Positions 4,471 through 31,248 of a stretch of 64,000 nucleotides of DNA are shown here, piece after piece (positions within the stretch are counted from its first letter, which is position 1; each line of letters begins with the position of its first letter). The notes beneath the pieces were generated by a model. The model saw nothing but the letters and a program-made list of their open reading frames with translations. It did not search any database and was not told the origin of the DNA. Source of the DNA: Candidatus Eiseniibacteriota bacterium. GTDB taxonomy: Bacteria > Eisenbacteria > RBG-16-71-46. The DNA lies in assembly GCA_963707915.1 (NCBI GenBank), contig OY970178.1:2624001-2688000 (forward strand). The letters run 5' to 3'. The position numbers were made by a program, and so were the translations under genes.

Positions 4471-6162
4471 TCAGAAGTCCTCGAAGCCGTCCGCGTCGCC
4501 GTCCGTCCCGGTGGCCGCGAGCCGCACCGGCGCGGACCTCGGCAGGGGAACCACGCGGGCGGCGGTCGCCGGCGCGGACGTCGCCGCCTCCGCCAACGCC
4601 CGATCGGCCAGCGTGAAGCGACCGACCTGGCGGCGCAGCTCGTCGGCCTGCCCGGCCAGCGTGTGGGCGGTGCTGTCGAGCTCCTCGGTCTGACCGGCGG
4701 ACTGCTGGGTGACGCGGTCCATCTGCTCCACCGCGCGGCTCACCTGTCCGATGCCGTGCGCCTGCTCGGCGGACGCCGCGGCGATGCCCGCCACCAGGTC
4801 CGCGACCTGCTTCACCTCGCCGACGATCGTGGTCAGCGTCTCGCCCGAACGGTCGACCAGGACGCTGCCCCGTTCGACCTGCGACACCGCGTCGGCGATG
4901 ACGCTCTTGATCTCCTTCGAGGCGGTCTTGGAGCGCTGCGCCAGCGCGCGCACCTCGCTGGCGACCACCGCGAAGCTGCGCCCCTGCTCGCCCGCCCGCG
5001 CCGCCTCCACCGCGGCGTTGAGCGCCAGCAGGTTGATCTGGAAGGCGATCTCGTCGATGGTCCCGCTGATGTCGCCGATGCGGTGCGACGCGGTGGTGAT
5101 CCCCGACATCGCTTCGACCGCGGCGCGCACGACCTGCCCGCCCGCCTCCGCCCGGTCGCGCGTGTGGGCGGCGAGCTGCTTGGCCTGCTGCGCGTGCTCG
5201 GAGTTGGCGCGCACCGTTTCGGTCATGGCCTGGAGCGAAGCCGTGGTCTGTTCGAGCGCGGCCGCCTGCTCCTGGCTGCCCGAGGCGAGCGTGGCCGCGC
5301 GCCGGGCCACGCCGTTCGACGCCACCTGCACCGCCCCGATCGTTCCGGCCAGCTCGCCCAGCACCGATGCGACCTGCACGCGCGTGTCCTCGATGGCCGC
5401 GGCGATGCGCCCGATCTCGGCCACCGCCCGCACCTTCAACGGCCGCGAGAAGTCGCCGCGGGCGAGCGGCTCGACCGCGGGCAGGAGCGCCGCCACCGGA
5501 CGCTTCACCGTGCCGGCGATCACCCAGAGCAGGCCGAGGATGGCGCACGTCATGATGAGCGCGAGCAGGCCGACCGCCTTGAAGGCGTCGGCGCGCGCGG
5601 TCGCCATGGCGCTGCCGAGCGGGACCTCGACCACCAGGGCCCCCATCGGGCGGCCCAGGGCGAGGCGGTGCTGGACCTGGCCCAGTTGCGAGGCATGGCA
5701 GTCCACGCACATCTGGACCACGGCGTTCTCCGCGCGGACGTACGACAGCGTGGGCTCGCCCTTCACGACGTGGACGCGGGAAGGCTCGCTCCGGGGATCG
5801 GCGAGCAGCCGCTCCAGGGCCCGGGTCTCGAACTCGTCCCGGGGCTTGTGCTCGGGATTGAGCGGCCACAGGCCCAGGGCGCTGACGCCGTAGAGGCCCT
5901 GGCCGTTCACGCTCATGCCGATCTCGTGGATGAACATCGGGTCGAGCCCGGCCGACTCCATCTGGCGGCTGTACTGCTCGCGGTCCTGCGCGATCTGGTA
6001 GGCGATCGACCGGGCCGACTGCCGCGCCTGGCTCTCGATGGTGCGGCGGGACTCGATCATGAGGTAGGCGGCGCCGAGCAGCGTGATGAGCGCCCCGCCG
6101 ATGACCACGGGCACCATCAGTCGGGTCGAGATCGAGTCCCGGAGAACGTCCAGCCTGATCAT
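4471..6162 (-). CDS. Methyl-accepting chemotaxis protein with periplasmic c-type heme (Tll0287/DUF3365-like) sensor domain
   Basis: TM-sensor(CVDCH)-TM-HAMP-MCP signal domain (IAFQINLLALNAAVEAARAGEQGRSFAVVASEVRALAQRS); start set at MIRLD. Confidence 0.9.
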   Translation of the reverse strand: MIRLDVLRDSISTRLMVPVVIGGALITLLGAAYLMIESRRTIESQARQSARSIAYQIAQDREQYSRQMESAGLDPMFIHEIGMSVNGQGLYGVSALGLWPLNPEHKPRDEFETRALERLLADPRSEPSRVHVVKGEPTLSYVRAENAVVQMCVDCHASQLGQVQHRLALGRPMGALVVEVPLGSAMATARADAFKAVGLLALIMTCAILGLLWVIAGTVKRPVAALLPAVEPLARGDFSRPLKVRAVAEIGRIAAAIEDTRVQVASVLGELAGTIGAVQVASNGVARRAATLASGSQEQAAALEQTTASLQAMTETVRANSEHAQQAKQLAAHTRDRAEAGGQVVRAAVEAMSGITTASHRIGDISGTIDEIAFQINLLALNAAVEAARAGEQGRSFAVVASEVRALAQRSKTASKEIKSVIADAVSQVERGSVLVDRSGETLTTIVGEVKQVADLVAGIAAASAEQAHGIGQVSRAVEQMDRVTQQSAGQTEELDSTAHTLAGQADELRRQVGRFTLADRALAEAATSAPATAARVVPLPRSAPVRLAATGTDGDADGFEDF

Positions 6163-6454
6163 GTGGGGGCCCTCTGCGTGTCGCATGCCACGGCGCGCCG
6201 CGCCCAATGCGCGGCCCAGCCGGGCTCCGTCCCTCCAAGTCTCGGTCGGTCCGGCCGGAACCTGAAGAGCCCGCCTGCCGCCCCGGGGGAGGAGGGCTTC
6301 CCCGGCGGCCGGGCCGCCGGCGGTTCACCTCCCCGCGCCCCCTGTGCGAGAATGGCGCCTCGTCGGGCCGCAGCCCGGGAGCGCCGGCGCGCGGTTGCCC
6401 CACGGGGCGCGGGGGCCGCCGGCTCCCGCACCGATGCCCATCCAGGAGGTGGCG

Positions 6455-17835: not shown

Positions 17836-17846
<11 letters not shown>

Positions 17847-19161
17847 GATCCACCTCGGAGGGTGCGCGGTGGGGCGCCGCCGGACGGGCGGGCCCGCCGG
17901 CGGGGGCCGGCACCAGCGCGGCGGCCGGGTCGCCGGCCCACGCGGCCTTCCGCACCTCCGCGTCGCGCCGTGCGGCGGTCGCGAGCGGCAGGCCGAAGAG
18001 CCGGATGAAGCCCCCGGCGTGCGTGGCGTCGTAGCCGGTCATGTCGAACGAGGCGAGCGCCGGCCGGTAGAGCGACCAGGGGCTGGTGCGGGCGACGGCG
18101 CGGGCCTGGCCGTGCCCGATCTCGACCGTGACCTCGCCGGTGGCGGGCTCGAGCGCGCGGTCGGTGAACGACTGCAGTGCCTCGCGCAGCGGCGAGAACC
18201 ACTGCCCGTTGTAGACCAGGTCCGCGTAGCGCGGCGCCAGCTCGGCGCGCGTCCTCAGCAGGTCGTGCGGCAGCACCAGCGCGCACAGGTCCTCGAGCGC
18301 CTCGCGCAGCACGGTGCCGGCGGGGGTCTCGTAGACGCCGCGCGACTTCATGCCGACCAGCCGGCTCTCGACGATGTCCACGCGGCCGACGCCGTGCCGC
18401 CCGGCCCGCGCGTTCAACTCCTCGACCAGCGCCACGGGGCCGAAACGCGTGCCGTCGAGGCTCACCGGCACGCCGGACTCGAAACCGACGACGACCTGCT
18501 CCGCCTGTGCGGGGCGCAGGCCGGGCCCGTTCGTCAGGCGATGCATGCTCTCGGGCGCGACCGTCCCCGGGTCCTCCAGCGGGCCGCCCTCGTGCGAGAG
18601 GTGCCAGAGGTTGCCGTCGCGCGAGAACAGGTCGCGCGAGGTCTGCGCGACCGGGATGCCGTGCCGCGCGGCGTAGGCCAGCGCGTCCTCGCGCGAGACG
18701 ATGTCCCACTCGCGCCACGGCGCGAGCACGGTGAGCTGGGGGGCGAGCGACTGGTAGGCCAGCTCGAAGCGGACCTGGTCGTTGCCCTTGCCGGTGCAGC
18801 CGTGCGCGACGGCATCGGCGCCCAGCTCCAGCGCCCAGTGCACCTGGCGCGCGGCGATGAGCGGGCGGGCGAGCGAGGTGCCGAGCAGGTAGCGGCCCTC
18901 GTAGATCGCGCCGGCGCGCAGCGCCGGGAAGGCGAAGTCGCTCACGAAGGGCTGGCGCAGGTCCTCGATCACGACCTGGCTCGCCCCGCTCGCGTGCGCC
19001 TTGGCCTCGAGTCCCTCGAGTTCGGCACCCTGTCCGACGTCGGAGCAGTAGCACATCACCTCGCAGCCGTGGCGCTCGCGGAGCCAGGGCACGATGATGC
19101 TGGTGTCGAGCCCGCCGGAGTAGGCGAGCATCACCTTCTCGATCTTCCGTCCGTTCTTCAC
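17836..19161 (-). CDS. argG: Argininosuccinate synthase
   Basis: LAYSGGLDTS, LLGTSLARP, HGCTGKGNDQVRF, GMKSRGVYETP; GTG start overlaps the argD stop. Confidence 0.97.
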
Positions 19162-20408
19162 GATGCTCCGCCTTTCGTCTCGAGTCGGGTCACTGCGGCC
19201 TCGAAGCGCTCCACGGCGAGCGCGATCTGTCCGGTGGTCACGTTGAGGGGGGGCAGGAAGCGCACGGCGTGCTCGCCGCCGCGCACCAGCAGCAGCCCGT
19301 GCTCGCGCGCGGCCCGCACCAGCTCGGGCGGCGCGAAGGGCGCCCCGGGAACGATCTCGACGGCGCGCAGCAGGCCGAGCCCGCGCGTCTCCGCGAGCGC
19401 GCCGTGACGCGCCACGACCGCCGCGAGCGCGGCGTCCAGCTCGCGTCCGCGCCGCCGCACGCGCGCGAGGAATCCGGGCCGGCGCACCCGCGCGAGCACC
19501 CAGCTGCCGGCCGCGGCGACCGCCGGGCCGCCGCCGAAGGTGCAGCCGTGCATGCCGGGCGCGAGCGCCTGCGCGACCTCGTCCGTCATGAGCACCGCCC
19601 CGAGCGGCAGGCCGCCGCCGAGCGCCTTGCTGAGCACGACCAGGTCGGCGCGCACGCCGAAGTGCTCCGCGGCGAGCAGCCGCCCGCAGCGGCCCATGCC
19701 GCACTGCACCTCGTCGAAGACCAGGGCGGCGCCGGACGCGGTGCAGCGCGCGCGCAGCGCCTCGAGGAACCCGCGCGTCGCGGGCACGGCGCCGCCTTCA
19801 CCCTGCACCGGCTCGACGATGACCGCGCAGACGTCCGTGCCGAGCGCCTGGTCCAGCCCGTCGATGCGGTTGAAGTCGGCGAAGCGCACGCCGGGCACCA
19901 GCGGCTCGAAGGGCTCGCGATAGGCGGGGGTCCAGGTCGCCGAGAGCGCGAATCCGGTGCGGCCGTGGAACCCGCCGCGGAAGGCGAGGATCGCGCGCCC
20001 CGGGCGCCCCGCGTGCCGGGCCCGCGCGCGGGCGAACTTGAGCGCCGCCTCGACGCCCTCGGTGCCGCTGTTGCAGAAGAACGCCCGCGGGTACCCGGTG
20101 GCGGCGGTGAGCTCCTCGGCCAGCGCGGCGCCGGGCGGGCTGGCGAACAGGTTCGAGCAGTGCGCCAGCGTGCGCAGTTGCCGTGCCACGGCGCGCGCCA
20201 GCCCGGGCGGGGCATGACCGAACGCGTTGACGGCGATGCCGCTCACGAAGTCGAGATACTCGCGGCCGTCGGGCCCGGTGGCCCAGGCCCCGCGGCCCGA
20301 GACCAGCGCGGGACGCGGCAGAGGGTAGACGGGCGCGAGCACGCCGACCTCGGCTTCGGCCAGGGCGGATGGCGCGGCCGCGACCGCGTCGTGCGGGAGG
20401 AGCGTCAT
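19158..20408 (-). CDS. argD: Acetylornithine aminotransferase
   Basis: YLDF.SGIAVN.FGH, FCNSGTE, FHGRT, EPVQGEGG, DEVQCGMGR, SKALGGG; operon context. Confidence 0.92.
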   Translation of the reverse strand: MTLLPHDAVAAAPSALAEAEVGVLAPVYPLPRPALVSGRGAWATGPDGREYLDFVSGIAVNAFGHAPPGLARAVARQLRTLAHCSNLFASPPGAALAEELTAATGYPRAFFCNSGTEGVEAALKFARARARHAGRPGRAILAFRGGFHGRTGFALSATWTPAYREPFEPLVPGVRFADFNRIDGLDQALGTDVCAVIVEPVQGEGGAVPATRGFLEALRARCTASGAALVFDEVQCGMGRCGRLLAAEHFGVRADLVVLSKALGGGLPLGAVLMTDEVAQALAPGMHGCTFGGGPAVAAAGSWVLARVRRPGFLARVRRRGRELDAALAAVVARHGALAETRGLGLLRAVEIVPGAPFAPPELVRAAREHGLLLVRGGEHAVRFLPPLNVTTGQIALAVERFEAAVTRLETKGGAS

Positions 20409-21253
20409 GGGCGCGGCCCGCCGTGTCCGGGACGGCCGGGGCCGCTCCAAGGGGGGCCTCCGATCGTCGTGCACCGCGCCGAGCCTGCGAGGATGGAAGC
20501 CAGCGCGCCGGGGCCGCTCCACGCGGCGATGTGGACCCGGCCCACGCCTGCGGCCAGCGCGGCCTGCGCGGCGCGCAGCTTGGGTCGCATGCCGCCGGTG
20601 ACCTGGGGGTTCGCGAGCGCCGCGTCGAGGGCGTCGCCGTCGAGGTCCGCCTGGAGGGTCTCGTCGAGGACGAGGCCCGGCGTGTCGCTCAGGAGCACCA
20701 GGGAGTCGGCGCCGAGCGCGCCCGCGAGCGCGGCGGCGAGGTCGTCGGCGTTGAGATTCATCAGCGCGCCGTCGCAGGCGCCGATGCTCGCGAGCACCGG
20801 CGTGCGGCCCTGGGCGAGCAGGCTCTCGAGCAGCGCCGGACGCACGTCGCGCACGCTGCCCACCGCGCCCAGCCGCGCGGCGTCCGGGTGCGGCCCGACC
20901 TCGGCGATCCCGCCGTCGAGCGCGGAGAGGCCCACCGCGTCCACGCCGCGGGAGCGCAGGCGCGCGACCAGGCGCCGGTTGGCCAGCCCCGCGAGGACGG
21001 CGGTCGCGACCTCGATGGTCGGGGCGTCGGTGACCCGCAGGCCGTCCACGAAGCGGGGCTCGAGGCCCAGCCGGCGGCACCAGGCGCTCAATTCGCCGCC
21101 GCCGCCGTGCACCAGCACCGCCCGGCCCGCGAGCCCGGCGAGCTCGTCCGCCAGCTCGTCGGCCGCGCCGGGCGATTCGAGCGCGCGGCCGCCGAGCTTG
21201 ACGACCGTGGGCCGCGCGGTCGCGGCGGCGACGTGGGCCGGCGCCGCGCTCAC
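20405..21253 (-). CDS. argB: Acetylglutamate kinase
   Basis: VVKLGG, VHGGG, FVDGLRVTD, NLNADD, GGMRPK. Confidence 0.95.
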   Translation of the reverse strand: MSAAPAHVAAATARPTVVKLGGRALESPGAADELADELAGLAGRAVLVHGGGGELSAWCRRLGLEPRFVDGLRVTDAPTIEVATAVLAGLANRRLVARLRSRGVDAVGLSALDGGIAEVGPHPDAARLGAVGSVRDVRPALLESLLAQGRTPVLASIGACDGALMNLNADDLAAALAGALGADSLVLLSDTPGLVLDETLQADLDGDALDAALANPQVTGGMRPKLRAAQAALAAGVGRVHIAAWSGPGALASILAGSARCTTIGGPPWSGPGRPGHGGPRP

Positions 21254-22386
21254 CAGGGGCACCCGTGGACGGGCAGGCCGGTGGCCTCGGGCCAGCCCAG
21301 CACGAGGTTCAGGTTCTGGATCGCCTGGCCCGCCGCGCCCTTCACCAGGTTGTCGATCGCCGCCGCGGCCAGCAGCGTGGTCCCGCCGTGCAGCGTCGTG
21401 ACCGCGAGGTCGCAGCGGTTCGAGCCGCGCACGTGGCGCGTCTCGGGCCACTCGCCCGCGTCGAGCAGGCGCACGAAGCGCTCGCCGTCGTAGCGCTCGA
21501 GGTACGCCGCGCGCGCCTCCGCGGGGCTCACCGGGCGCGCGAGCGTCGCGCTGGCGGTCAGGAGGATGCCGCGCGCCATCGGGACGAGCTGCGGCGCGAA
21601 GGTCACCGGGTGCGCGGCCCCGGCGAGCCGGGCGAGGTTGCGCTCCATCTCGGGCACGTGGGGGTGTCCGGCGCCGGCGCGATAGAGCGCCGCGCCGCCG
21701 TCGAGTTCCACGAACGAGGTGCGCAGCGCGGACGCGCGCCCGGCGCCGCTGGCGCCCGAGACCGCGCTCACCATCACGGGCCCGGCGAGCCAGCGGGCGG
21801 CGGGCAGCAGGGCCAGCGTGGCGGCGGTCGGGTAGCAGCCCGGGTTCGCGATGCGGGAAGCCGGCGCGATCTCGTCGCGGAAGGCCTCGGGCAGGCCGTA
21901 GACGTAGGCCGGGCCCGGCGCGTGCGCCGCGTGGGCGCCGCCGTCGCGGAAGTCGGACGAGAGGTCCACGATGCGCGCCGGGCCCCGCGCCAGGGCCGGC
22001 CGTGCGGCGGCGAGCGCCGCCCACGCGCCGTGCGGCAGGCAGCAGACCAGCGTGTCGAAGGCGCCCGCGGCGAGCAGGGCCTCGAGGGCGGATGGATCCA
22101 CGACGGCGGGCAGGGCCGCCGCGCGCGGATCGAGGCCCGGGAGGAGGTCCGCCGCCGGCCGGCCGGCGTGCTCCCGCGAGACCAGCACGGTCACCTCGAG
22201 GCCGGGGTGCCCGAGCGCGAGGCGCGTCAGCTCCTGGCCGGAGTAGCCGCTGGCCCCGAGCAGCGCGAGGCGCGCCGTGCGGGGCGAAGCGTCCGCGGGC
22301 GCGACGCTGCCCGCCGGCGCGGAGGCGATGCTCCCGCCCCCGGCCGGACCCGAGCTCCCGGCCGTTCCCGGAACGGGGCAGCTCAC
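21250..22386 (-). CDS. argC: N-acetyl-gamma-glutamyl-phosphate reductase
   Basis: GASGYSG, LPHG, DLSSDFR, YGLPE, ANPGCYPT, SGASGAG, IDNLVKGAAGQA. Confidence 0.96.
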   Translation of the reverse strand: MSCPVPGTAGSSGPAGGGSIASAPAGSVAPADASPRTARLALLGASGYSGQELTRLALGHPGLEVTVLVSREHAGRPAADLLPGLDPRAAALPAVVDPSALEALLAAGAFDTLVCCLPHGAWAALAAARPALARGPARIVDLSSDFRDGGAHAAHAPGPAYVYGLPEAFRDEIAPASRIANPGCYPTAATLALLPAARWLAGPVMVSAVSGASGAGRASALRTSFVELDGGAALYRAGAGHPHVPEMERNLARLAGAAHPVTFAPQLVPMARGILLTASATLARPVSPAEARAAYLERYDGERFVRLLDAGEWPETRHVRGSNRCDLAVTTLHGGTTLLAAAAIDNLVKGAAGQAIQNLNLVLGWPEATGLPVHGCPW

Positions 22387-22859
22387 TTCCCGGTACCGGC
22401 CGGCTGGCCCTGGAGCGATTCGAGGCGGCGCTTGAAGCGCCGGGCCGCGGTCGTGTCCGCGGTCACCACGAGGATGGTGTCGTCGCCGGCCACCGAGCCG
22501 ACGATGCCGTCGAAGCCCGCGAGGTCGATGGCCCGCGCCACGGCGTTGGCGTGGCCCGGGGGGGTGCGCACGACCACGAGGTTCTGCGCCAGCCGGACGT
22601 CGTTGACGAAGGCCTTGAGGTCGAGGGACTGGCGCTCGCGGTCGAGGGCCTCGGTGGCGGGGCCCTGGAGCTCGTAGACCATGCGGCCGGAGGCGCCCGG
22701 CCGCTTGAGCACCCCGAGGCTGCGCAGGTCGCGCGACAGGGTGGCCTGGGTGACCTGGACCCCGGCGCGGGCGAGCGCCTTCACCAGCTCCTCCTGGCTC
22801 GAGAAGCGGTGCCCGGCGACGAGTTCGGCGAGCAACGTGAGGCGGCGCGGGCGCGGCAT
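22383..22859 (-). CDS. argR: Arginine repressor
   Basis: SQEEL, VTQATLSRDL, T.PG.A, GSVAGDDTI. Confidence 0.96.
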   Translation of the reverse strand: MPRPRRLTLLAELVAGHRFSSQEELVKALARAGVQVTQATLSRDLRSLGVLKRPGASGRMVYELQGPATEALDRERQSLDLKAFVNDVRLAQNLVVVRTPPGHANAVARAIDLAGFDGIVGSVAGDDTILVVTADTTAARRFKRRLESLQGQPAGTGK

Positions 22860-23289: not shown

Positions 23290-23304
23290 TGGCACTCCTC
23301 TTGC
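23290..23304 (+). promoter_or_regulatory. Sigma54 (-24/-12) promoter of the redox operon
   Basis: TGGCAC-tcctc-TTGC, exact match to TGGCAC-N5-TTGC, ~90 bp before the probable first start codon. Confidence 0.75.
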
Positions 23305-23390
23305 GGGCACGGAGCGATCCTCACGAAACGACGACAACGCGCAGTCCGCGGAACACGACCCCCCGCATTTCGGCCGCGAGGAGTCGCAAC

Positions 23391-24308
23391 TTGCAATCCG
23401 CCGTGCTGGTCCACACCTCCAAGAGTGGCAGGACCCTCGCGATCCCCGCGGACCGCGCGGCGCTGGTGTGCCTGCTCGCGATCCCCCTCGGGGTCACCCT
23501 GCGATACCTGCCCTACTACGTGTCGGGCGTATCCAGCCGGGCGCGTGACCCGCTGCACCCCCTGCTGGGCCCGTCCGGGCCGGTCGGGATCTCGTTCGGG
23601 CTCGTGGGCGCAGCGCTCTTCCTGTTCATGTGGCTCTACCCGCTGCGCAAGCACCTGCCGGCGCTGCGCCGTGCGGGGAACCTGCGCACCTGGCTCCAGG
23701 TCCACATCCTGGCGGGTCTCGCGCTGCCGTTCGTGGTGGCCGTGCACGCGGGCTGGCGCTTCACCGGGCTCATCGGCCTGGGCTACGCCGCCATGGTGCT
23801 CGTGATCCTGAGCGGCGTCGTGGGGCGCTACCTGTACGGCCACATCCCCCGCCGGCAGGACGGGCTCGAGCTCTCGCTCGAAGCGGTGGCGAACGAACGC
23901 CGCGCCCTGCTCACCCGCATCGCCGCCGCCACCGGGCTCCATCCTGCCGAGGTGGATCACGCGCTCCACCCGGGCGCCGCGCCGGGCGCAGGCCGCGGCA
24001 TCGCGGGCACGCTCGCGCGCCTGGTCGCCGGCGACCTCGCGCGGCGGCGCGCGGTGCGCGAACTGGCGCGTCTCCGGGCGCAGCCACGGCCGGGCCTGCC
24101 ACCGCCGGACCCCCACGCGCTGGCCGAGGCCGTGAAGCTCGCCCGCCGGGAGGTGGCCCTGGAGCAGCAGGTCCGGATGCTGGGGGCCACGCAGCGCGTC
24201 TTCACCTGGTGGCACGTGGCTCACCTGCCGGTGGCGATCACGTCGTTCCTGGCCATCCTCGTCCACGTCGGCGTCGCCGTGCTCATCGGCGGCGTGATGC
24301 TGCGCTGA
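23391..24308 (+). CDS. His-rich integral membrane protein, cytochrome b/ferric-reductase-like TM module (start uncertain)
   Basis: LYPLRK, WLQVH..AG, VAVHAG, SGVVGRYLY, WWHVAHLP, ILVHV; TTG start after GAGGAG chosen because it lies downstream of the sigma54 site. Confidence 0.75.
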   Translation: MQSAVLVHTSKSGRTLAIPADRAALVCLLAIPLGVTLRYLPYYVSGVSSRARDPLHPLLGPSGPVGISFGLVGAALFLFMWLYPLRKHLPALRRAGNLRTWLQVHILAGLALPFVVAVHAGWRFTGLIGLGYAAMVLVILSGVVGRYLYGHIPRRQDGLELSLEAVANERRALLTRIAAATGLHPAEVDHALHPGAAPGAGRGIAGTLARLVAGDLARRRAVRELARLRAQPRPGLPPPDPHALAEAVKLARREVALEQQVRMLGATQRVFTWWHVAHLPVAITSFLAILVHVGVAVLIGGVMLR

Positions 24309-24312
24309 CGCC

Positions 24313-25800
24313 ATGAGCATGGCCCTCACCGTGCTCGGCTTCGCCGCGCTGACGGCGCTCTTCGCCTGGTGGCACGTGCGCGGCTCGGGCGCCGGCGTCA
24401 CGGCGTCCGACCTGCGGACCTGCCCGCGCTGCCGGGCCCGCTTCGCGGCCGGGGCCGTGTTCTGTCCGGGGTGCCGCGTGCCGGTGCAGGTCTACGAGCT
24501 GGTGAGCGCTCCGATCGCGGACGTCGCGGAGCCGCTCGACCTGGACGTGAAGCCGCACCCCATCGTGCGCACCGACCTGTGCGTGGGTTGCGGCACCTGC
24601 GTGGCGGCCTGCCCGGAGCCCGGGGCGATCCAGCTGGTGGACCACCACTCGTTCGTGGATCTCGACCGCTGCAAACGGCACGGGACCTGCGCGGCAGCCT
24701 GCCCGATGGGCGCCATCGTGATGGCGACGGGCGCGGCGGTGCAGCGCGTCGAAGTGCCGGACGTCGACGGCCACTTTCAGACCAACGTGCCCGGGCTCTA
24801 CGTGGTGGGAGAGCTGGGCGGGCGGGGGCTGATCAAGAACGCGATCAACGAGGGCCGCATCGCCATCGAGCACGTCGCGCGGGTGCTGGCGGCAGGCCGT
24901 CCGTGGCGGCCGGGCGAAGCCGGGCCGGCCGCTGCCGGATCGGACACGCCGGGCCCCTACGACGTGCTCGTGGTCGGCTCGGGCCCCGCGGGGCTCTCGG
25001 CCGCGCTCGAGGCGCAGCGCCTGGGCCTGCGTGCCGTCGTGCTCGAGCAGGGCTCGATCTCGGACACGATCCGCAAGTACCCCCGGCGCAAGCTCCTGCT
25101 CGCCGAACCCTCGCGCGTCCAGCTCTACGGCGGGCTGTGGGTGTCCGACGCCACGAAGGAGGAACTGCTGACGGTGTGGGAGACGATCATCGCGCGCGCC
25201 GGCCTGCGCGTGCGCACCGGCGAGCGGGTGGAGTCGCTGGACCACGACGGCGTGCTGTTCCGCGTGCGCACCCCGGGGACCGAGTACCAGGCCCGCAAGG
25301 TCGTGCTGGCGATGGGGCGGCGCGGCACGCCGCGGCGGCTGGGCGTGCCGGGCGAGGAGCTGGAGAAGACGCTCTACGACGTCGTCGAGATGGAGTCGTT
25401 CGCGGGCTGCCGCATGCTGGTGGTCGGGGGCGGCGACAGCGCGATCGAATCGGCGATCGGTCTCGCCGCCCAGCCGGACACCACGGTCACGCTCTCGTAC
25501 CGCGGGCAGGAGTTCCCGCGCGTGAAGGAGCGCAACCGCGAGAAGCTCGAGGCCGCGGTCCGGGCGTCCGGCAAGGACGGGGCGGGCCGCCTGGAGGTGC
25601 TGCTCGGCAGCCGCGCGGTCGAGATCCGCCCCGGGGTCGTGGCGCTCGACTGCGGGGGCATGGCCCGCCTGCTCCCCAACGACTACGTGATCGTCCGCAT
25701 CGGCGGCGAGCCGCCCTACCCGTTCCTCGAGCGCTGCGGCGTGCGTATCGTGACCAAGGAGATCGCGATCGAGACCGGCGCGGAAAGGCGGGCCGGGTGA
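24313..25800 (+). CDS. Membrane-anchored ferredoxin-containing FAD/NAD(P)-binding oxidoreductase (TrxB/YpdA-like)
   Basis: N-terminal TM, CPRC..CPGC, CVGCGTCVAACP, CKRHGTCAAACP, VVGSGPAGLSAA, VVGGGDSAIE. Confidence 0.88.
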   Translation: MSMALTVLGFAALTALFAWWHVRGSGAGVTASDLRTCPRCRARFAAGAVFCPGCRVPVQVYELVSAPIADVAEPLDLDVKPHPIVRTDLCVGCGTCVAACPEPGAIQLVDHHSFVDLDRCKRHGTCAAACPMGAIVMATGAAVQRVEVPDVDGHFQTNVPGLYVVGELGGRGLIKNAINEGRIAIEHVARVLAAGRPWRPGEAGPAAAGSDTPGPYDVLVVGSGPAGLSAALEAQRLGLRAVVLEQGSISDTIRKYPRRKLLLAEPSRVQLYGGLWVSDATKEELLTVWETIIARAGLRVRTGERVESLDHDGVLFRVRTPGTEYQARKVVLAMGRRGTPRRLGVPGEELEKTLYDVVEMESFAGCRMLVVGGGDSAIESAIGLAAQPDTTVTLSYRGQEFPRVKERNREKLEAAVRASGKDGAGRLEVLLGSRAVEIRPGVVALDCGGMARLLPNDYVIVRIGGEPPYPFLERCGVRIVTKEIAIETGAERRAG

Positions 25801-27575
25801 GGGCCGCGCTCCCCGCCACCCTGGTCATGCTCTCGCTTGCCGTCGCCCTTCCCGCCCGCGCGCAGCTCTCGCCCGGGCCGCTCAGCGAGGCCCACCACGC
25901 GCTCGAGGGCGTCACGCAGTGTCTCCAGTGCCACGAGCGCGGCGCCGGCGTGGCGGACGCGAAGTGCCTCGCGTGCCACACCGAGATCGGCTGGATGCTC
26001 GGCCGCGACCGCGGGCTCCATCCCCGCGTGCGATCCACGCCCTGCGCGAAGTGCCATCCCGACCACGCCGGTCGCGACTTCCGGTTGGTGCGCTGGGACG
26101 AGGGCGCCCCCGGGCGCTTCGACCACCGGCGCGCGGGGTTCGCGCTCGAGGGCCGTCACGGGAGCCTCCAGTGCGCCGAGTGCCACCAGCCGCGCTTCCA
26201 GGGGTCGGGCGCCGCCGCGCTCATCCGCAAGCGGGACCGCGCGGGGAGCTGGCTGGGGCTCGATCGCGCCTGCGCCTCGTGCCACCACGATCCCCATCGG
26301 GGCCAGCTGGGTGCCACCTGCACGGCCTGCCACGGGCAGGTGGCCTGGAAACCGGCCGCGGGCTTCGACCACGCGAAGTCCGCCTACCCGCTCACCGACC
26401 GGCACGCCAGGGTCGAGTGCGCGAAGTGCCACCTCTCCCCGCGGCTCCCGCTCACCGCCGATGCGCAGGGGAAGCCCGTGCCGCTCTGGAAGCCGCTGCC
26501 GCACGCCGATTGCGCGTCCTGCCACCGGGACCCGCACTCCGGCCGGTTCCCGGGCGCCTGCGCGAAGTGCCACACGACGCGGGGCTTCCAGGTCTTCGAC
26601 GCGAGCGTGTTCGACCACGACCGGACGCGCTACCCGTTGCGCGGCCGGCACGCCTCCGTCGCCTGCGCGAAGTGCCACGATCCGAAGAAGCCGGGGGTGT
26701 GGAAGCCCCCCTATGACCGCTGTGACCGCTGTCACCGCGACGCCCACGCCGGTCAGGCCACGCTGGCGGGCCGCCCCGCCGACTGCGCCGCCTGCCACGC
26801 CGTCCAGGGCTGGAAGCCCTCGACCTACACGGTGGCCGCGCACCAGGCCTCGACCTATCCGCTCGAAGGACGTCACGCCGCGACCGATTGCGCGAAGTGC
26901 CACACGTCGGAACCGGACTCCCTCGCCGCCCGCCCGGCCGGCACGCGGGTGCGATTGCGGCCCGCCCACGCGCGCTGCCTCGACTGCCACGCCGACCCGC
27001 ACCGCGGGCGCTTCGAGCCGGGCGGCGCCCGCGCCAAGCGGTCGAGTTGCCGCACCTGCCACACCATGGACGGCTACAGGCCCACCCTGGTGGACGCCGC
27101 CGCGCACGCGCGCCTGGGCTACCCGCTCGAGGGGGCGCACCGCGCCGTGCCCTGCCAGGGCTGCCACGCCGAGCTGAAGCCCGCGCCGTCCGCGGCCGAT
27201 CCGGCGGTCCGGGGGGCCGTGGCAGGGCGCGATTCGCTGCGCGCGCTGCTCTTCGCCGACGCGGTCTCCGGCTGCGCGGGTTGTCACCCGTCCCCGCACG
27301 GCGAGCAGTTCAAGGGCCGCGGCCCGCGGGTGAAGGGCGGGCTGGCGGGCGACGCCTGCGACGCCTGCCACGGGCTCGAGGCCTTCAAGCCGGCGGAACG
27401 CTTCCGCCACGACCGGGACTCCGCGTTCCGGCTCACCGGGGCGCACGAGAAGGTCGGGTGCGGAGGCTGCCACAAGTCCTCGCGGGACGCGCAGGGGCGG
27501 ACCTTCGTGGTCTACAGGCCCACGCCCGCCCGCTGCGAGGAGTGTCATGTCCATCGACAGCAGGGGGCGTCATGA
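25797..27575 (+). CDS. Secreted multiheme cytochrome c, 20 CxxCH
   Basis: GTG start overlaps the upstream TGA; signal peptide ending ARA-Q; 20 CxxCH counted by hand, with FDH..F.L.G.H spacers. Confidence 0.92.
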   Translation: MRAALPATLVMLSLAVALPARAQLSPGPLSEAHHALEGVTQCLQCHERGAGVADAKCLACHTEIGWMLGRDRGLHPRVRSTPCAKCHPDHAGRDFRLVRWDEGAPGRFDHRRAGFALEGRHGSLQCAECHQPRFQGSGAAALIRKRDRAGSWLGLDRACASCHHDPHRGQLGATCTACHGQVAWKPAAGFDHAKSAYPLTDRHARVECAKCHLSPRLPLTADAQGKPVPLWKPLPHADCASCHRDPHSGRFPGACAKCHTTRGFQVFDASVFDHDRTRYPLRGRHASVACAKCHDPKKPGVWKPPYDRCDRCHRDAHAGQATLAGRPADCAACHAVQGWKPSTYTVAAHQASTYPLEGRHAATDCAKCHTSEPDSLAARPAGTRVRLRPAHARCLDCHADPHRGRFEPGGARAKRSSCRTCHTMDGYRPTLVDAAAHARLGYPLEGAHRAVPCQGCHAELKPAPSAADPAVRGAVAGRDSLRALLFADAVSGCAGCHPSPHGEQFKGRGPRVKGGLAGDACDACHGLEAFKPAERFRHDRDSAFRLTGAHEKVGCGGCHKSSRDAQGRTFVVYRPTPARCEECHVHRQQGAS

Positions 27576-27615
27576 GGAAGGCAGGCGTCATCTCCGGGCA
27601 CGCGGAAGGTCGGCC

Positions 27616-29508
27616 GTGAGGCGCCCCGGCCGGCCGGCACGGATCGGCGGCGTGCGGCTCGCGGCGCTGCTCCTGGCGGCATTGCCGCTCGTCCCGCTCG
27701 GGCTCGCCGCCGTCGCGGCCGACCGGCCCGCCGCGCAGCCGGCGGGAGAGCCCGATTACCCGCACGGGGCCTTCCAGGGCGACTGCTCGGAGTGCCACGG
27801 GGACGAGGGCTGGAAGCCGGCGCGCATCAGCCGGAACTTCGACCACGCGCGGCGCTCGGGGTTCGCCCTGGCCGGGGCGCATGCCGCGCTCCGGTGTGCC
27901 GCCTGTCACGGCACGCTCGACTTCTCCCAGCAGCGCAAGCTCTGCGCCTCGTGCCACCAGGATCCGCACCTCGGGGAGCTCGGGCCCGAGTGCGGCCGCT
28001 GCCACACCTCGCGCAGCTTCCTCGACCGCGCGGGCATGGTCCGCATGCACCAGTGGACGCGCTTCCCGCTGGCGGGCACGCACGCGGGGCTCGACTGCGA
28101 GGACTGCCACCCCCTGACGTCGCAGGGGCACCTGCGCTTCGCCGCGACCCGTGCGGACTGCTACTCGTGCCACCGTGCCGAGTTCGAGGGGGCGACCCGC
28201 CCCGCGCACGTCGCGGGCGGCTTCGCGACCGAGTGCTCGGCGTGTCACACGCCGCTGGCCTGGCGCCCCGCTCGCTTCGACCACTCGGGAGCCACCGACT
28301 GCGTCTCGTGCCACCGGGCCGACTACGACCGCACGACGGGTCCCGCGCACGCTGCCGCGGGCTTCCCGACCGCCTGCGCGACCTGCCACACGACCCGCGG
28401 GTGGCAGCCCTCGACGTTCGACCACGCCGCCACGGTGTTCGCGCTCACCGGCGCGCACCGGCAGACGCTCTGCGCGAGCTGCCACGGGAGTCCCTGGCAG
28501 AACGCGCTGGCCACCGACTGCTACTCGTGCCACAGGCCGGCCTACGACGCGACGATCGCGCCCGCGCACGCCGCGGGCGGGATCCCCACGACCTGCACCA
28601 GCTGCCACAACACGGTGGCCTGGCAGCCGGCGACGTTCGACCACGCGGCCACGCCGTTCCCGCTCACCGGGGCGCACGTCCAGGCGCCGTGCGCGAGCTG
28701 CCACGGGAGTCCCTGGCAGAACGCGCTGGCCACCGACTGCTACTCGTGCCACAAGCCGGCCTACGACGCGACGGCCGCGCCCGCGCACGCCGCGGGCGGG
28801 ATCCCCACGACCTGCGCGAGCTGCCACAACACGGTGGCCTGGCAGCCGGCGACGTTCAACCACGCGGCCACGCCGTTCCCGCTCACCGGGGCGCACGTGC
28901 AGGCGCCGTGCGCGAGCTGCCACGGGAGTCCCTGGCAGAACACGCTGGCCACCGACTGCTACTCGTGCCACAAGCCGGCCTACGATGCGACGGCGGCGCC
29001 CGCGCACGCCGCGGGCGGGATCCCCACGACCTGCGCGAGCTGCCACAACACGGCGGCCTGGCAGCCGGCGACGTTCAACCACGCGGCCACGCCGTTCCCG
29101 CTCACCGGGGCGCACGTGCAGGCGCCGTGCGCGAGCTGCCACGGCAGTCCCTGGCAGAACACGCTGGCCACCGACTGCTACTCGTGTCACAAGCCGGCCT
29201 ACGATGCCACCACCGACCCCGCCCACGCGGCGGCGGGGTTCCCGGTCACCTGCGCCACCTGCCACACGACGACCACCTGGCTCGGGGCGACGTTCGACCA
29301 CACCTGGTTCCCGATCAGCTCGGGCCGGCACTCGGGGAACTCGTGCGCGAGCTGCCACAACGCCCCGGCCAACTACGCCTCGTTCACCTGCCTCACCGCG
29401 GGGTGCCATTCGCAGAGCAGCACCGACGGCCACCACGACAGCGTCTCGGGGTACCGGTACGACAGCGCTGCCTGCTACTCGTGCCACCCGCGCGGGGCGG
29501 CCGGTTGA
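27616..29508 (+). CDS. Secreted multiheme cytochrome c, 23 CxxCH + 1 CX4CH (start uncertain)
   Basis: Hydrophobic signal segment; hand count of motifs; internal 73-aa three-heme repeats. Confidence 0.92.
   Translation: MRRPGRPARIGGVRLAALLLAALPLVPLGLAAVAADRPAAQPAGEPDYPHGAFQGDCSECHGDEGWKPARISRNFDHARRSGFALAGAHAALRCAACHGTLDFSQQRKLCASCHQDPHLGELGPECGRCHTSRSFLDRAGMVRMHQWTRFPLAGTHAGLDCEDCHPLTSQGHLRFAATRADCYSCHRAEFEGATRPAHVAGGFATECSACHTPLAWRPARFDHSGATDCVSCHRADYDRTTGPAHAAAGFPTACATCHTTRGWQPSTFDHAATVFALTGAHRQTLCASCHGSPWQNALATDCYSCHRPAYDATIAPAHAAGGIPTTCTSCHNTVAWQPATFDHAATPFPLTGAHVQAPCASCHGSPWQNALATDCYSCHKPAYDATAAPAHAAGGIPTTCASCHNTVAWQPATFNHAATPFPLTGAHVQAPCASCHGSPWQNTLATDCYSCHKPAYDATAAPAHAAGGIPTTCASCHNTAAWQPATFNHAATPFPLTGAHVQAPCASCHGSPWQNTLATDCYSCHKPAYDATTDPAHAAAGFPVTCATCHTTTTWLGATFDHTWFPISSGRHSGNSCASCHNAPANYASFTCLTAGCHSQSSTDGHHDSVSGYRYDSAACYSCHPRGAAG
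28291..29300 (+). repeat. 219-bp intragenic tandem repeat (~4.5 units, 3 hemes each)
   Basis: GCCACCGACTGC recurs at 28291, 28510, 28729, 28948 and 29167; central units are nearly identical at DNA level. Confidence 0.93.
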
Positions 29509-31217
29509 GCGCGCCCCGCGTCCCGCGTCCGTCATGGCCGTGCCGGGGCCGCCGGGCCTGGCGCGCGCTGGCGTCATGCGCGGCGCTCGTCGCGCTGTCC
29601 CTGGCCGGTGGGCCAGTGGCGCAGGCGGCGGGGCGGGAGGCCCGCGTCAGCTACCTCGCCGGCGCATCGGTCTACGTGGACGCCGGCCGGGCGGAGGGCC
29701 TGCGGGAGGGCGACTCGCTGACGGTGGTGCGTGGGGGGAAGCCCATCGCCTGGCTGCGGGCCTCGTTCCTTTCCTCGCATCGCGCCTCCTGCGACACGCT
29801 GGGCACGCTCGCGCCCGTCCAGGTGGGCGACGTGGCGCGCTTCGTCCCCAGCCTCCCCGGTCTCGTCGATGCCGGGCGCGACTCCAACGCCGTGGCGCCC
29901 GGCGCGGCCCGGGCGATCGCCACGCCGCCTGCGGGTCCGCCCGTTCCCGGCCCGGCCCCGGGCGTTCCGCCGGGGATCGCCGCGTCCGTGGCCCCCGCGC
30001 CGCGCGTCGCGCGCGGCGGCGGACCGCTGCGCGGACGGCTCGGGGCGCGTTTCCTGACCGTGCAGAGCGACGGCGGCAACCGCCTCACCCAGCCGGCGTT
30101 CGACCTGCGGCTCGACGGTGTGAGCCTGGGCGGGGCGCCGGTCGACCTGGCGGTGGACTTCCGGGGCCGCCGCGTCACGCAGAGCGGTCCGGGGCGGACC
30201 CCGTCGAACCGGGACCGCGGCCTGTTCTACAGCCTCGCGCTCGCGACCCACGACGCGGGCGGACACTACCGGCTCACGGTCGGCCGGCAGCTCTCGCCGG
30301 CGCTCGCGCCCGTGAACCTGTTCGACGGCGCGCTGGTCGAGCGCCGCGGCGCGCGCTGGAACGCGGGGCTCTTCAGCGGCACGCAACCCGAGCCCCTCCG
30401 GCTTGGTCTGTCCGGGGCGATCGTCCAGGGGGGCGGCTACGTCGAGTGGCACCAGCCGCCGGGTGCGGCGCGGCGCTGGACCGTGAGCAGCGGTGCCATC
30501 AGTTCGTACGACCACGGCAACACCAACCGCGACTTCGGCTTCCTGCAGGGCTATTACCTGGACCGCGCGGTGAGCGCGACGCTCTCGCAGGAGGTCGACG
30601 TGAACCGCGGCTGGAAGCGCGAACGGGGCCAGCCCTCGCTCCAGGCGACGGGCACGTTCCTCACGACCAACGTGCGGGTCGGCTCCGCGCTCTCGTTGCG
30701 CGCCGGGTTCGACACCCGGCGGAACGTCTGGCTCTACCGGGACCGGACCACGCCCGAGAACCTGTTCGACGACCGCTACCGGCAGGGTGGCTGGGGTGGT
30801 GCGATGCTCGACGTCGCGCATCACTTCCGGCTCACGGGGGACGCGCGCACCAGCTCGATCGCGGGGGCCCGGCGCCAGGACGGCTGGACCGGCGGGCTCG
30901 AGGGCTACCGTTTCACCCCGCTCAACCTGGCGCTGCGCGCGCGCTACAGCCGGTTCACCGGCGGCGGCCAGGAGAACTCGCTGGCTTCGTTCGGGGCCGG
31001 TCTCGATCCGCTGGGCCGGGTGCACCTCGAGATGACCGGGGGGCAGCGCACCACGCGGGACGCGCTGGCCGGGGCCGGGGAGCGCTCGCAGTGGCTCGGC
31101 GCCGATCTCGATGTGATGCTGCCGGGTCGCGCCTACGCGAATGCCTCGTTCGAGAACGACACGGGTGGACTCGGCGCGTCGCGCCAGGCGTACTTCGGGC
31201 TGAGCTGGAGATTCTGA
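29505..31217 (+). CDS. Putative outer-membrane beta-barrel protein
   Basis: TTG start overlaps the cytochrome stop; signal peptide, small N-domain, Pro-rich linker, amphipathic strands, C-terminus YFGLSWRF (BAM-type terminal Phe). Confidence 0.75.
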   Translation: MSAPRVPRPSWPCRGRRAWRALASCAALVALSLAGGPVAQAAGREARVSYLAGASVYVDAGRAEGLREGDSLTVVRGGKPIAWLRASFLSSHRASCDTLGTLAPVQVGDVARFVPSLPGLVDAGRDSNAVAPGAARAIATPPAGPPVPGPAPGVPPGIAASVAPAPRVARGGGPLRGRLGARFLTVQSDGGNRLTQPAFDLRLDGVSLGGAPVDLAVDFRGRRVTQSGPGRTPSNRDRGLFYSLALATHDAGGHYRLTVGRQLSPALAPVNLFDGALVERRGARWNAGLFSGTQPEPLRLGLSGAIVQGGGYVEWHQPPGAARRWTVSSGAISSYDHGNTNRDFGFLQGYYLDRAVSATLSQEVDVNRGWKRERGQPSLQATGTFLTTNVRVGSALSLRAGFDTRRNVWLYRDRTTPENLFDDRYRQGGWGGAMLDVAHHFRLTGDARTSSIAGARRQDGWTGGLEGYRFTPLNLALRARYSRFTGGGQENSLASFGAGLDPLGRVHLEMTGGQRTTRDALAGAGERSQWLGADLDVMLPGRAYANASFENDTGGLGASRQAYFGLSWRF

Positions 31218-31218
31218 G

Positions 31219-31248
31219 CCGGGGGGGCGCGCGTTCGCGCCCCCCCGG
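31219..31248. terminator. Hairpin between convergent genes (probable terminator)
   Basis: CCGGGGGGGCGCG-cgtt-CGCGCCCCCCCGG, perfect 13-bp stem; no U-tract. Confidence 0.65.

Follow-up and report, generated by a model that had tools for sequence, protein, structure and literature searches.

Five neighbouring genes in the window analysed here, a 64,000-nucleotide stretch of the genome of a Candidatus Eiseniibacteriota bacterium, probably make up a trans-envelope electron wire of the predicted PCC3 kind, together with a cytoplasmic flavoenzyme. The parts, their motifs, the outer-membrane barrel and the conserved linkage of the genes are apparent from sequence and fold. I favour, at roughly 55%, a reading in which a split NOX-like entry exports NADPH electrons across the envelope and acts as a valve or surface reductase more than in respiration; the coupling and the direction of flow I infer. 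A bolder version, which I would put somewhat below even odds, has genes 1 and 2 form a NOX-like NADPH dehydrogenase (5+1 TM, with a permuted TrxR-fold flavoprotein and a His-ligated Fe-S exit) wired directly to a chain of 40-100 hemes through the outer membrane. This would be quinone-independent EET for redox balance or surface reduction, not respiration; many Eisenbacteria and Gemmatimonadota would have it, and in an aerobic heterotroph it would be carried on a plasmid.

The gene cluster and its fit to PCC3

All five open reading frames lie on the + strand, with GC3 of 0.91-0.96: gene 1, a putative inner-membrane protein of 305 aa with five predicted TM helices (23391-24308); gene 2, an Fe-S flavoprotein with an N-terminal TM anchor (24313-25800); gene 3, a 20-heme cytochrome c (25797-27575); gene 4, a second cytochrome c (27616-29508, alternative start 27547); and gene 5, modelled as an outer-membrane 22-strand beta-barrel (29505-31217), whose product ends in YFGLSWRF. 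This layout bears out the sequence-only reading, as do the 43 CxxCH and one CX4CH (20 CxxCH in gene 3, 23 CxxCH plus the CX4CH in gene 4) and the two stop/start overlaps, GTGA at 25797-25800 between genes 2 and 3 and, provided that TTG is the start of gene 5, TTGA at 29505-29508 between genes 4 and 5. Judged by eye, genes 3-5 have hydrophobic N-terminal leaders, those of the cytochromes resembling plain Sec signals with no lipobox.

The proposed sigma54 site 5' of the cluster was recovered by a motif search of window and genome as a -24/-12 type sequence, TGGCAC-N5-TTGC (23290-23304, + strand), the sole copy in the 64-kb window and one of nine in the 3.62-Mb genome, which also encodes RpoN. 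Of 75 related loci, 6 have a similar site ahead of gene 1, against 3 of 1500 shuffles; the site is enriched among them but not universal. Although the reading frame of gene 1 is open from 23289, the sigma54 site overlaps its first GTG and the true start must therefore lie further downstream, presumably at TTG 23391, behind GGAG. The hairpin placed 3' of the cluster is a GC-rich 13-bp stem (31219-31248, not assigned to a strand) between convergent genes, and the 61-nt region folds at -40.1 kcal/mol (z -4.4), but it has no U-tail and drew no call in a terminator scan, which makes it a stable hairpin and not a canonical intrinsic terminator.

The same reading did not recognise the cluster as a characterised system, but, compared by published description, it appears to fit PCC3, a predicted porin-cytochrome system in which an inner-membrane protein (IMP), a periplasmic and an extracellular multiheme cytochrome and a porin follow in that order (He et al. 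2017, PMC5566968), represented in Sideroxydans ES-1 by Slit_1446-1449 (PMC5566968; Hoover et al. 2023, PMC10734462). Genes 1, 3, 4 and 5 of the window keep the order of Slit_1446-1449, with gene 2 inserted. The PCC3 IMP, about 300 aa long with five TM helices, carries WX3HX13H on each of TM3 and TM5 and SGxxG on TM4, and has been proposed to be a quinone-active di-heme cytochrome b (PMC5566968). Gene 1 agrees with it in length, in hydropathy, in both motifs and in SGxxG. Both WX3HX13H motifs occur, together with SGxxG, in 57 of the 58 rows of its alignment, H105, H119, H278 and H292 are invariant throughout, and its topology was read from hydropathy and the distribution of K/R; a trans-membrane di-heme b protein of the PCC3/PCC4 IMP type is thus predicted, in keeping with the heme-b-like protein suspected earlier. 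Gene 1 itself has no Pfam match and no relative by sequence in the PDB, and the Pseudomonadota-dominated ESM Atlas clusters of 311-320 aa (score 0.87) are no more than a lead towards homology with the reference Sideroxydans/Leptothrix PCC3 proteins.

PCC3 cytochromes have medians of 21 and 34 hemes at 22-39 aa per heme, the second being repetitive and rich in small residues (PMC5566968). Those of the window carry 20 and 23/24 hemes at 28.4 and 25.9 aa per heme, and gene 4 contains a tandem 219-bp repeat (28291-29301, + strand; 73 aa and three hemes per unit, 4.6 copies, 89% matches) and is 42.5% A+T+S+G. Gene 3 is basic (net charge +29) and of a fixed-length type with 20 or 23 hemes in relatives, while the gene 4 type ranges from 13 to 61 hemes in close relatives and reaches 85 in locus L102. 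Gene 3 may correspond to the periplasmic and gene 4 to the 'extracellular' cytochrome of PCC3, an assignment that is not firm because some related loci have one cytochrome type only. Gene 4 has no relative by sequence in the PDB.

AF2 with a 144-row alignment models gene 5 (pLDDT 87.1) as a small N-terminal beta domain, weakly FlgT_C-like (FlgT_C matched in 6 of 55 barrel rows), a disordered linker and then 22 strands in residues 134-528, with no TonB-type plug; the fold was read from this model, single-sequence AF2 (pLDDT 32.6) being unusable. This supports the barrel predicted for the last gene. The PCC3 porin of L. cholodnii likewise has 22 strands, beside cytochromes of 24 and 22 hemes, and many PCC3 porins have up to 42 (PMC5566968). 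Gene 5 has no relative by sequence in the PDB; in structure it comes closest to 22-strand TonB-dependent barrels and ushers (Z about 18-19), and MtrB (6r2q_B; Z 16.4, 8% identity) is a generic barrel match.

The flavoprotein and its linkage to gene 1

The apparent addition to PCC3 as described is gene 2, which encodes a flavoprotein with two [4Fe-4S] clusters and a membrane anchor and is almost always linked to the other genes. Its domains, assigned by domain, fold and motif comparison, are a TM anchor, a double zinc ribbon, a 2x[4Fe-4S] ferredoxin with CxxHxxCxxxCP as the second motif, and a circularly permuted TrxR-fold flavoprotein of YpdA/FNR type. The GGG[DN]SA motif and R397, invariant in 61 of 61 rows, I take to indicate a preference for NADP(H), so that the NAD(P)H-type ferredoxin-flavoprotein proposed earlier seems well placed. 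The best PDB sequence matches (E 6e-31; profile 1.5e-48) are YpdA/Bdr (7a76, 7a7b) and the TrxR-type FNRs (YumC, 2zbw, 3ab1), which share the TrxR fold without the redox CxxC but, unlike gene 2, are not permuted, ferredoxin-fused or membrane-anchored. Gene 2 is not a thioredoxin reductase, the redox CxxC being found at the TrxR position in 0 of 61 rows, nor a YpdA/Bdr, since it reaches 151.7 bits where the TIGR04018 cut-off is 339.9 and is not a soluble single-domain protein in canonical order. Nor is the permutation specific to conduits, because the same domain occurs in a stand-alone NapH/Fer4_5-fused membrane polyferredoxin family that had no gene 1 or multiheme neighbour in the four loci fetched.

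The five genes co-occur widely among relatives. In anchored counts that take in related, non-independent genomes and near-duplicate metagenome loci, with search profiles derived from the gene-2-anchored loci, gene 1 lies directly upstream of gene 2 in 80 of 80 gene-2-anchored loci, 57 of which also show the barrel (the remaining 23 break off in or ahead of the cytochromes); gene 2 adjoins gene 1 in all 20 top gene-1-anchored loci and in 15 of the 16 more distant clusters of full size, the sixteenth lying at a contig edge. Gene 2 takes four positions: after gene 1, in tandem before it, divergently before it, or after the barrel. L102 and L103 are accordingly not four-gene clusters, as gene 2 sits just past the barrel. 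Of 41 relatives, 15 combine a gene 2 orthologue (E<1e-150) with the barrel, one has gene 2 only, two have barrel fragments only and 23 have neither. L119 and L166 contain cytochromes and barrel; gene 1 is absent from the 7 kb or so upstream of these. No genuine fusion of genes 1 and 2 was found among the long matches: P0145, P0413 and P0232 contain off-frame stretches and were judged frameshift artefacts, which counts weakly against the favoured reading. P0414, in which an Fe-S protein is fused to a gene 1 relative, looks real and counts for it.

This linkage bears on the first alternative, that gene 1 is a quinone-active cytochrome b, the wire being fed by or feeding the quinol pool and gene 2 serving as an NADPH:quinone link or optional side input. 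It draws on the published PCC3 model and on the proteobacterial clusters, which are described as four genes, with no flavoprotein of gene 2 type, in the available text (PMC5566968; PMC10734462), and which suggest that gene 2 may be dispensable for the same membrane protein. In L124, which has gene 1, both cytochromes and barrel, gene 2 is missing from the 3.9 kb upstream and the 10 kb downstream, and 5 of 40 distant gene 1 relatives weakly match Ni_hydr_CYTB. Against this, gene 2 is kept near-universally through four gene orders, and small barrel-less gene 1 relatives adjoin NAD(P)H flavoproteins of other families in four of six loci examined (L113 and L201 have an FNR-type FAD_binding_6/NAD_binding_1/Fer2 protein, L112 has a truncated one and L200 a Pyr_redox_2 protein). 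I consider a quinone-active gene 1 rather unlikely.

Hosts of the cluster are Eisenbacteria, Gemmatimonadota, Krumholzibacteriota, Acidobacteriota and Bacteroidota, whereas PCC3 was described from Proteobacteria. Of 121 genomes of the phylum Gemmatimonadota (completeness at least 90%), 25 contain a gene 1 homologue; in a sample from a second phylum, probably Eisenbacteria, 54 of 150 genomes do. The full five-gene cluster is also carried on plasmid pEMTOL02 of the cultured Emticicia oligotrophica DSM 17448 (EMTOL_RS21090-21110, with ccsA adjacent), an aerobic heterotroph that is not known to perform EET; a literature search on EET in this species found nothing. The host of the window has, in addition, separate cytochrome b6-, NrfH- and NrfD-like proteins beside other multiheme cytochromes, so that quinone-linked entries may exist apart from the cluster.

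A proposed route for the electrons

In the favoured reading, an NADPH-fed export route, gene 2 would oxidise cytoplasmic NADPH at its FAD and send electrons one at a time through its two [4Fe-4S] clusters, of which the His-ligated one is a likely exit. Gene 1 (five TM, N-in/C-out) would move them over the inner membrane on two b hemes, held by H105/H278 on the cytoplasmic and H119/H292 on the periplasmic side, and the single TM and cytoplasmic dehydrogenase of gene 2 would take the place of TM6 and the dehydrogenase domain of NOX/FRE. The fixed-length 20-heme cytochrome may then span the periplasm, and the repeat-expandable 23/24-heme cytochrome continue through or beyond the barrel to acceptors such as Fe(III), humic quinones or other cells. 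Outward flow from NADPH would be downhill both chemically and electrically; it would spend membrane potential and conserve none, which argues for a redox valve or cell-surface reductase and not a respiratory chain. Of the earlier proposal that an NAD(P)H flavoprotein feeds the TM protein, the two parts have been found, and direct coupling and direction I infer. Complex prediction for genes 1 and 2 with two hemes and FAD gave a median of 0.24 (runs 0.44, 0.01 and 0.24) against a mark of 0.32, with controls not folded, and counts neither for nor against the pairing.

The electrons might instead not leave for outside acceptors at all. The cluster would then store electrons in the periplasm or at the surface, or be an assimilatory or maturation device in which genes 1 and 2 provide the reducing power to attach heme or release Fe(III), the barrel doing no more than anchor or secrete a cytochrome. 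The plasmid-borne cluster of the aerobic E. oligotrophica with its adjacent ccsA, the small barrel-less modules and YpdA, the nearest solved relative of gene 2 and a low-molecular-weight thiol reductase, are all consistent with this. It is nonetheless decidedly unlikely: the cluster contains no thioredoxin-like periplasmic gene, the barrel has no plug, and 26-28 aa per heme with repeat expansion to 61-85 hemes suggest wires tuned in length.

Reversed flow would draw electrons from extracellular donors (Fe(II), reduced humics, electrodes), with gene 2 making NADPH as a ferredoxin-NADP+ reductase. It appears very improbable: by textbook bioenergetics, inward transfer to NADP+ would have to overcome both the difference in redox potential and the membrane potential. 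Gene 2 is indeed related to TrxR-type FNRs, and PCC3 was defined in Fe(II) oxidisers (PMC5566968), but in Sideroxydans ES-1 the levels of the PCC3 proteins were alike across all samples, and detection failed for the extracellular cytochrome (PMC10734462).

Comparison with known systems

PCC4 has three periplasmic cytochromes of 4, 5 and 10 hemes (He et al. 2017, PMC5566968), and the cluster, with two of 20 and 23/24, is not a PCC4. In the available part of the same paper, PCC4 and the clusters of Suppl. Table 6 (IMP, multiheme cytochrome and 'other redox protein') share the IMP motifs of gene 1 and have further redox and Fe-S genes next to the IMP, as here, but the latter mostly lack a porin. 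Group-1 clusters of the Sterkfontein ghost-rock MAGs are possibly of the same family: as far as the accessible text goes, they have a porin of about 20 strands and, in 7 of 11, a nearby 'ferredoxin-NADP+ reductase', 'suggesting potential functional coupling', but a large decaheme cytochrome gene of 4-5 kb instead of 20-60-heme proteins, and neither IMP nor mechanism is discussed there (PMC13264449, 2026). The 8-13-heme clusters in the available part of Fiorito et al. 2026 do not fit, and the available passages of Suarez et al. 2023 and of the Bothnian Sea preprint do not describe the cluster. MtrCAB/MtoAB and Geobacter OmbB-OmaB-OmcB/Ext also pair a porin with multiheme cytochromes, MtrAB/MtoAB/PioAB being defined by a decaheme MtrA/DmsE with an MtrB-family porin. 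The HMM comparison with known porins that had been suggested gave no such link: none of the 55 barrels matched MtrB/PioB or other porin-cytochrome families in Pfam or NCBIfam, and with gene 4 at 36 bits against the TIGR03508 cut-off of 192, and 22 strands in the barrel, the cluster is not an MtrAB/MtoAB/PioAB.

Its entry resembles NOX/ferric reductases (FRD, PF01794), which likewise have two HX13H on TM3 and TM5 for a predicted trans-membrane di-heme. The NOX layout has six helices, with a cytoplasmic NADPH flavodomain after the sixth; here the enzyme is split over two genes, gene 2 having its own TM. Gene 1 relatives give only weak, sub-cut-off Pfam matches (Ferric_reduct in 11 of 40 more distant ones), the dehydrogenase combines a permuted TrxR fold and Fe-S clusters where NOX/FRD has an FNR-fold domain, and the acceptor would be the cytochrome wire. 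Characterised Gram-negative EET routes are not known to begin anywhere but at the quinone pool, and a wire leading directly from NADPH to the surface would depart from that design. If it exists, porin-cytochrome genes in soil and groundwater MAGs need not mean metal respiration or Fe(II) oxidation. The cultured E. oligotrophica makes PCC3-type function accessible to testing.

The five-gene locus and its host

The sequence-only reading described the plus-strand cluster (window 23391-31217) correctly: all five ORFs are present on inspection, motif counts give 20 heme motifs in gene 3 and 23 plus one CX4CH in gene 4, gene 5 ends in YFGLSWRF, and both the sigma54 site and the hairpin are there, the latter having no U-tail in a terminator scan. 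Gene 1 probably starts at TTG 23391, behind GGAG, since its first GTG is overlapped by the sigma54 site. Between genes 3 and 4 is a 15-codon ORF (window 27572-27619, plus strand) that overlaps the gene 3 stop with its start and GTG 27616 with its stop; it may serve translational coupling of the two genes, or reflect chance. An arginine biosynthesis operon (window 17836-22859, minus strand) diverges from the cluster, its argR and argC assigned by Pfam and its argB, argD and argG recognised by eye, and a secreted BNR/PPC protein is encoded convergently on the other flank. A minus-strand chemoreceptor (window 4471-6207) with a Tll0287-like domain and one CxxCH is a possible heme redox sensor.

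The cluster shares the GC content of the surrounding DNA, and among named relatives gene 2 is closest to those from Ca. Eisenbacteria MAGs (76-83% identity). The host genome has the genes for cytochrome c maturation and for RpoN; its match to heme-copper oxidase subunit I (COX1) falls into five pieces in alternating frames (G000:C1:1399300-1400573, minus strand), which suggests frameshifts or assembly errors. Host multiheme loci elsewhere include cytochrome b6-, NrfH- and NrfD-like proteins. A dense region just left of the window (L210, G000:C1:2604929-2621535) encodes a 13-heme protein with a cytochrome b (formate-DH-gamma-like) domain, 19-, 9-, 8-, 18- and 9-heme proteins, two cytochrome b6/ExtP-like proteins and an NrfD-like protein. 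A second candidate conduit (L211, G000:C1:3102491-3121589) comprises a DmsE-like decaheme protein, a 42-heme doubled-CxxCH protein, an NHL protein, 9- and 6-heme proteins, a 519-aa protein without a family, and CcmF/NrfE. These other loci, with their b6-, NrfH- and NrfD-like or DmsE-like and 42-heme proteins, could serve quinone-linked respiration.

Conservation of the cluster

The five genes also occur together elsewhere, in loci anchored on gene 2, on the barrel and on gene 1. Among kindred genomes and several near-duplicate loci, for which no statistic is claimed, gene 1 adjoins gene 2 in 80/80 of the best 80 of 231 gene-2-anchored GTDB loci; the barrel is present in 57 of these, and the remaining 23 are cut short. 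Of 310 barrel-anchored metagenome loci, 80 were kept: 22 have genes 1 and 2, four have gene 1 only (three cut by contig ends; L124 truly without gene 2 nearby), and 54 have neither, nearly all being too short. Two of these 54, L119 and L166, lack gene 1 in ~7 kb upstream. When gene 1 is the anchor, gene 2 appears in 20/20 top loci and 15/16 more distant clusters. Gene 2 takes four different positions among related clusters, which favours function over inherited gene order as the basis of its linkage. The Emticicia oligotrophica plasmid pEMTOL02 carries homologues of all five genes in the same order (blastp E 1e-11 to 1e-120). Two loci titled Hyphomicrobiales (L069) and Bacteroidota (L058) came from one phylum sample, so one title or both must conflict with the GTDB placement.

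Cytochromes were counted in 45 loci with two cleanly parsed cytochrome ORFs, of 53 examined; four further loci with frameshifts, truncation or inversion had been set aside in advance. The first cytochrome has 20 hemes in 10 loci and 23 in 35, and the second has 13-61, growing by a unit of 73 aa and three hemes; some loci keep one type alone. Gene 4 homologues at L102:12662-18877, a distant locus, and L103:1955-6946 have 85 and 68 CxxCH, the former equalling the maximum given by He et al. 2017 (PMC5566968). The cytochrome and barrel pair is duplicated in L146, L188 and the genome G172.

Gene 5, proposed earlier as a beta-barrel, is confidently predicted to fold as one, with 22 strands, no plug and a small N-terminal beta domain. 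Its structural neighbours are generic large barrels, and neither MtrB nor any other family model matched 55 homologues.

In barrel-less modules a 7-9-heme cytochrome accompanies a shorter relative of gene 1, and other NAD(P)H flavoprotein families flank these modules in 4/6 loci, matching the "other redox protein" column in Supplementary Table 6 of He et al. (PMC5566968). On the Bradyrhizobium BTAi1 plasmid (L112:4518-5153), a small relative of gene 1 has a flavoprotein partner that is apparently truncated by an IS3 element.

The membrane protein, the flavoprotein and a proposed electron path

Gene 1 has no match in Pfam or PDB and belongs to a large family (3357 clusters at 50% identity, E<=0.001); weak, below-cut-off Ferric_reduct matches occur in 11/40 more distant relatives. 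Four His are invariant across 58 aligned rows, two WX3HX13H motifs occur in 57/58 and SGxxG in 58/58. Five helices are predicted from hydropathy, and the loops that follow TM2 and TM4 are rich in K/R (~22 in the latter), which suggests an N-in/C-out protein with one heme near each face.

Gene 2 begins with a hydrophobic helix and basic residues, followed by a double zinc ribbon (missing from distant relatives), two Fe-S motifs, the second being CxxHxxCxxxCP in 60/61 rows, and Pyr_redox_3. Its nearest solved relatives are YpdA/Bdr and thioredoxin reductase (TrxR)-type ferredoxin-NADP+ reductases (FNRs). Residues 218-485 match YpdA 6-270, and the stretch at ~150-190 aligns with the FAD-binding segment at the C-terminus of thioredoxin reductase (7jyp 299-340, E 4e-4); all 60 matches listed for the latter stretch are disulfide-reductase-fold flavoproteins. 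These alignments show a circularly permuted fold. None of the 61 rows has CxxC at the TrxR position. A GGG[DN]SA motif and invariant R397 point to NADP(H), by the usual rules for the family. The permuted domain recurs in a separate Fer4_5-fused family (L204:8481-10700, L205:8396-10786, L206 and L207), with conduit genes nearby in 0/4 loci; such stand-alone Fer4_5 (NapH/FixG-like) polyferredoxin fusions with a permuted TrxR-fold domain, 740-830 aa long, are common in relatives.

In the simplest reading, electrons would pass from NADPH to the FAD of gene 2, its two Fe-S clusters, the two b hemes of gene 1, the 20-heme cytochrome, the 23/24-heme cytochrome and so to the outside. The five helices of gene 1 and the one of gene 2 would together give, in two genes, the helix layout of NOX/FRE. 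The favoured direction is outward, and such flow would draw down membrane potential; a role as valve or surface reductase therefore seems likelier than energy conservation.

Comparison with known systems

The sequence-only reading did not recognise a characterised system. The cluster has every testable defining feature of PCC3, the predicted porin-cytochrome system of He et al., compared by description rather than by homology to reference proteins. Literature searches found no paper describing the five-gene form or an NADPH-fed model. Gene 1 carries exactly the motifs listed for the PCC3/PCC4 inner-membrane protein (PMC5566968). PCC3 is itself a predicted system, its function putative (10.1101/2025.02.27.639646; PMC10734462; PMC11429942). 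FNR genes are reported beside 7/11 clusters with ~20-strand porins in a study of Sterkfontein ghost-rock MAGs (PMC13264449), so the flavoprotein-conduit association may already be in print. The cluster is a real, conserved and widespread variant of a predicted system, to which this analysis adds a folded barrel, a permuted flavoprotein whose Fe-S motif is of the His type, the persistence of gene 2 across four gene orders, the convergent use of flavoprotein partners and, in Emticicia oligotrophica, a cultured organism for testing.
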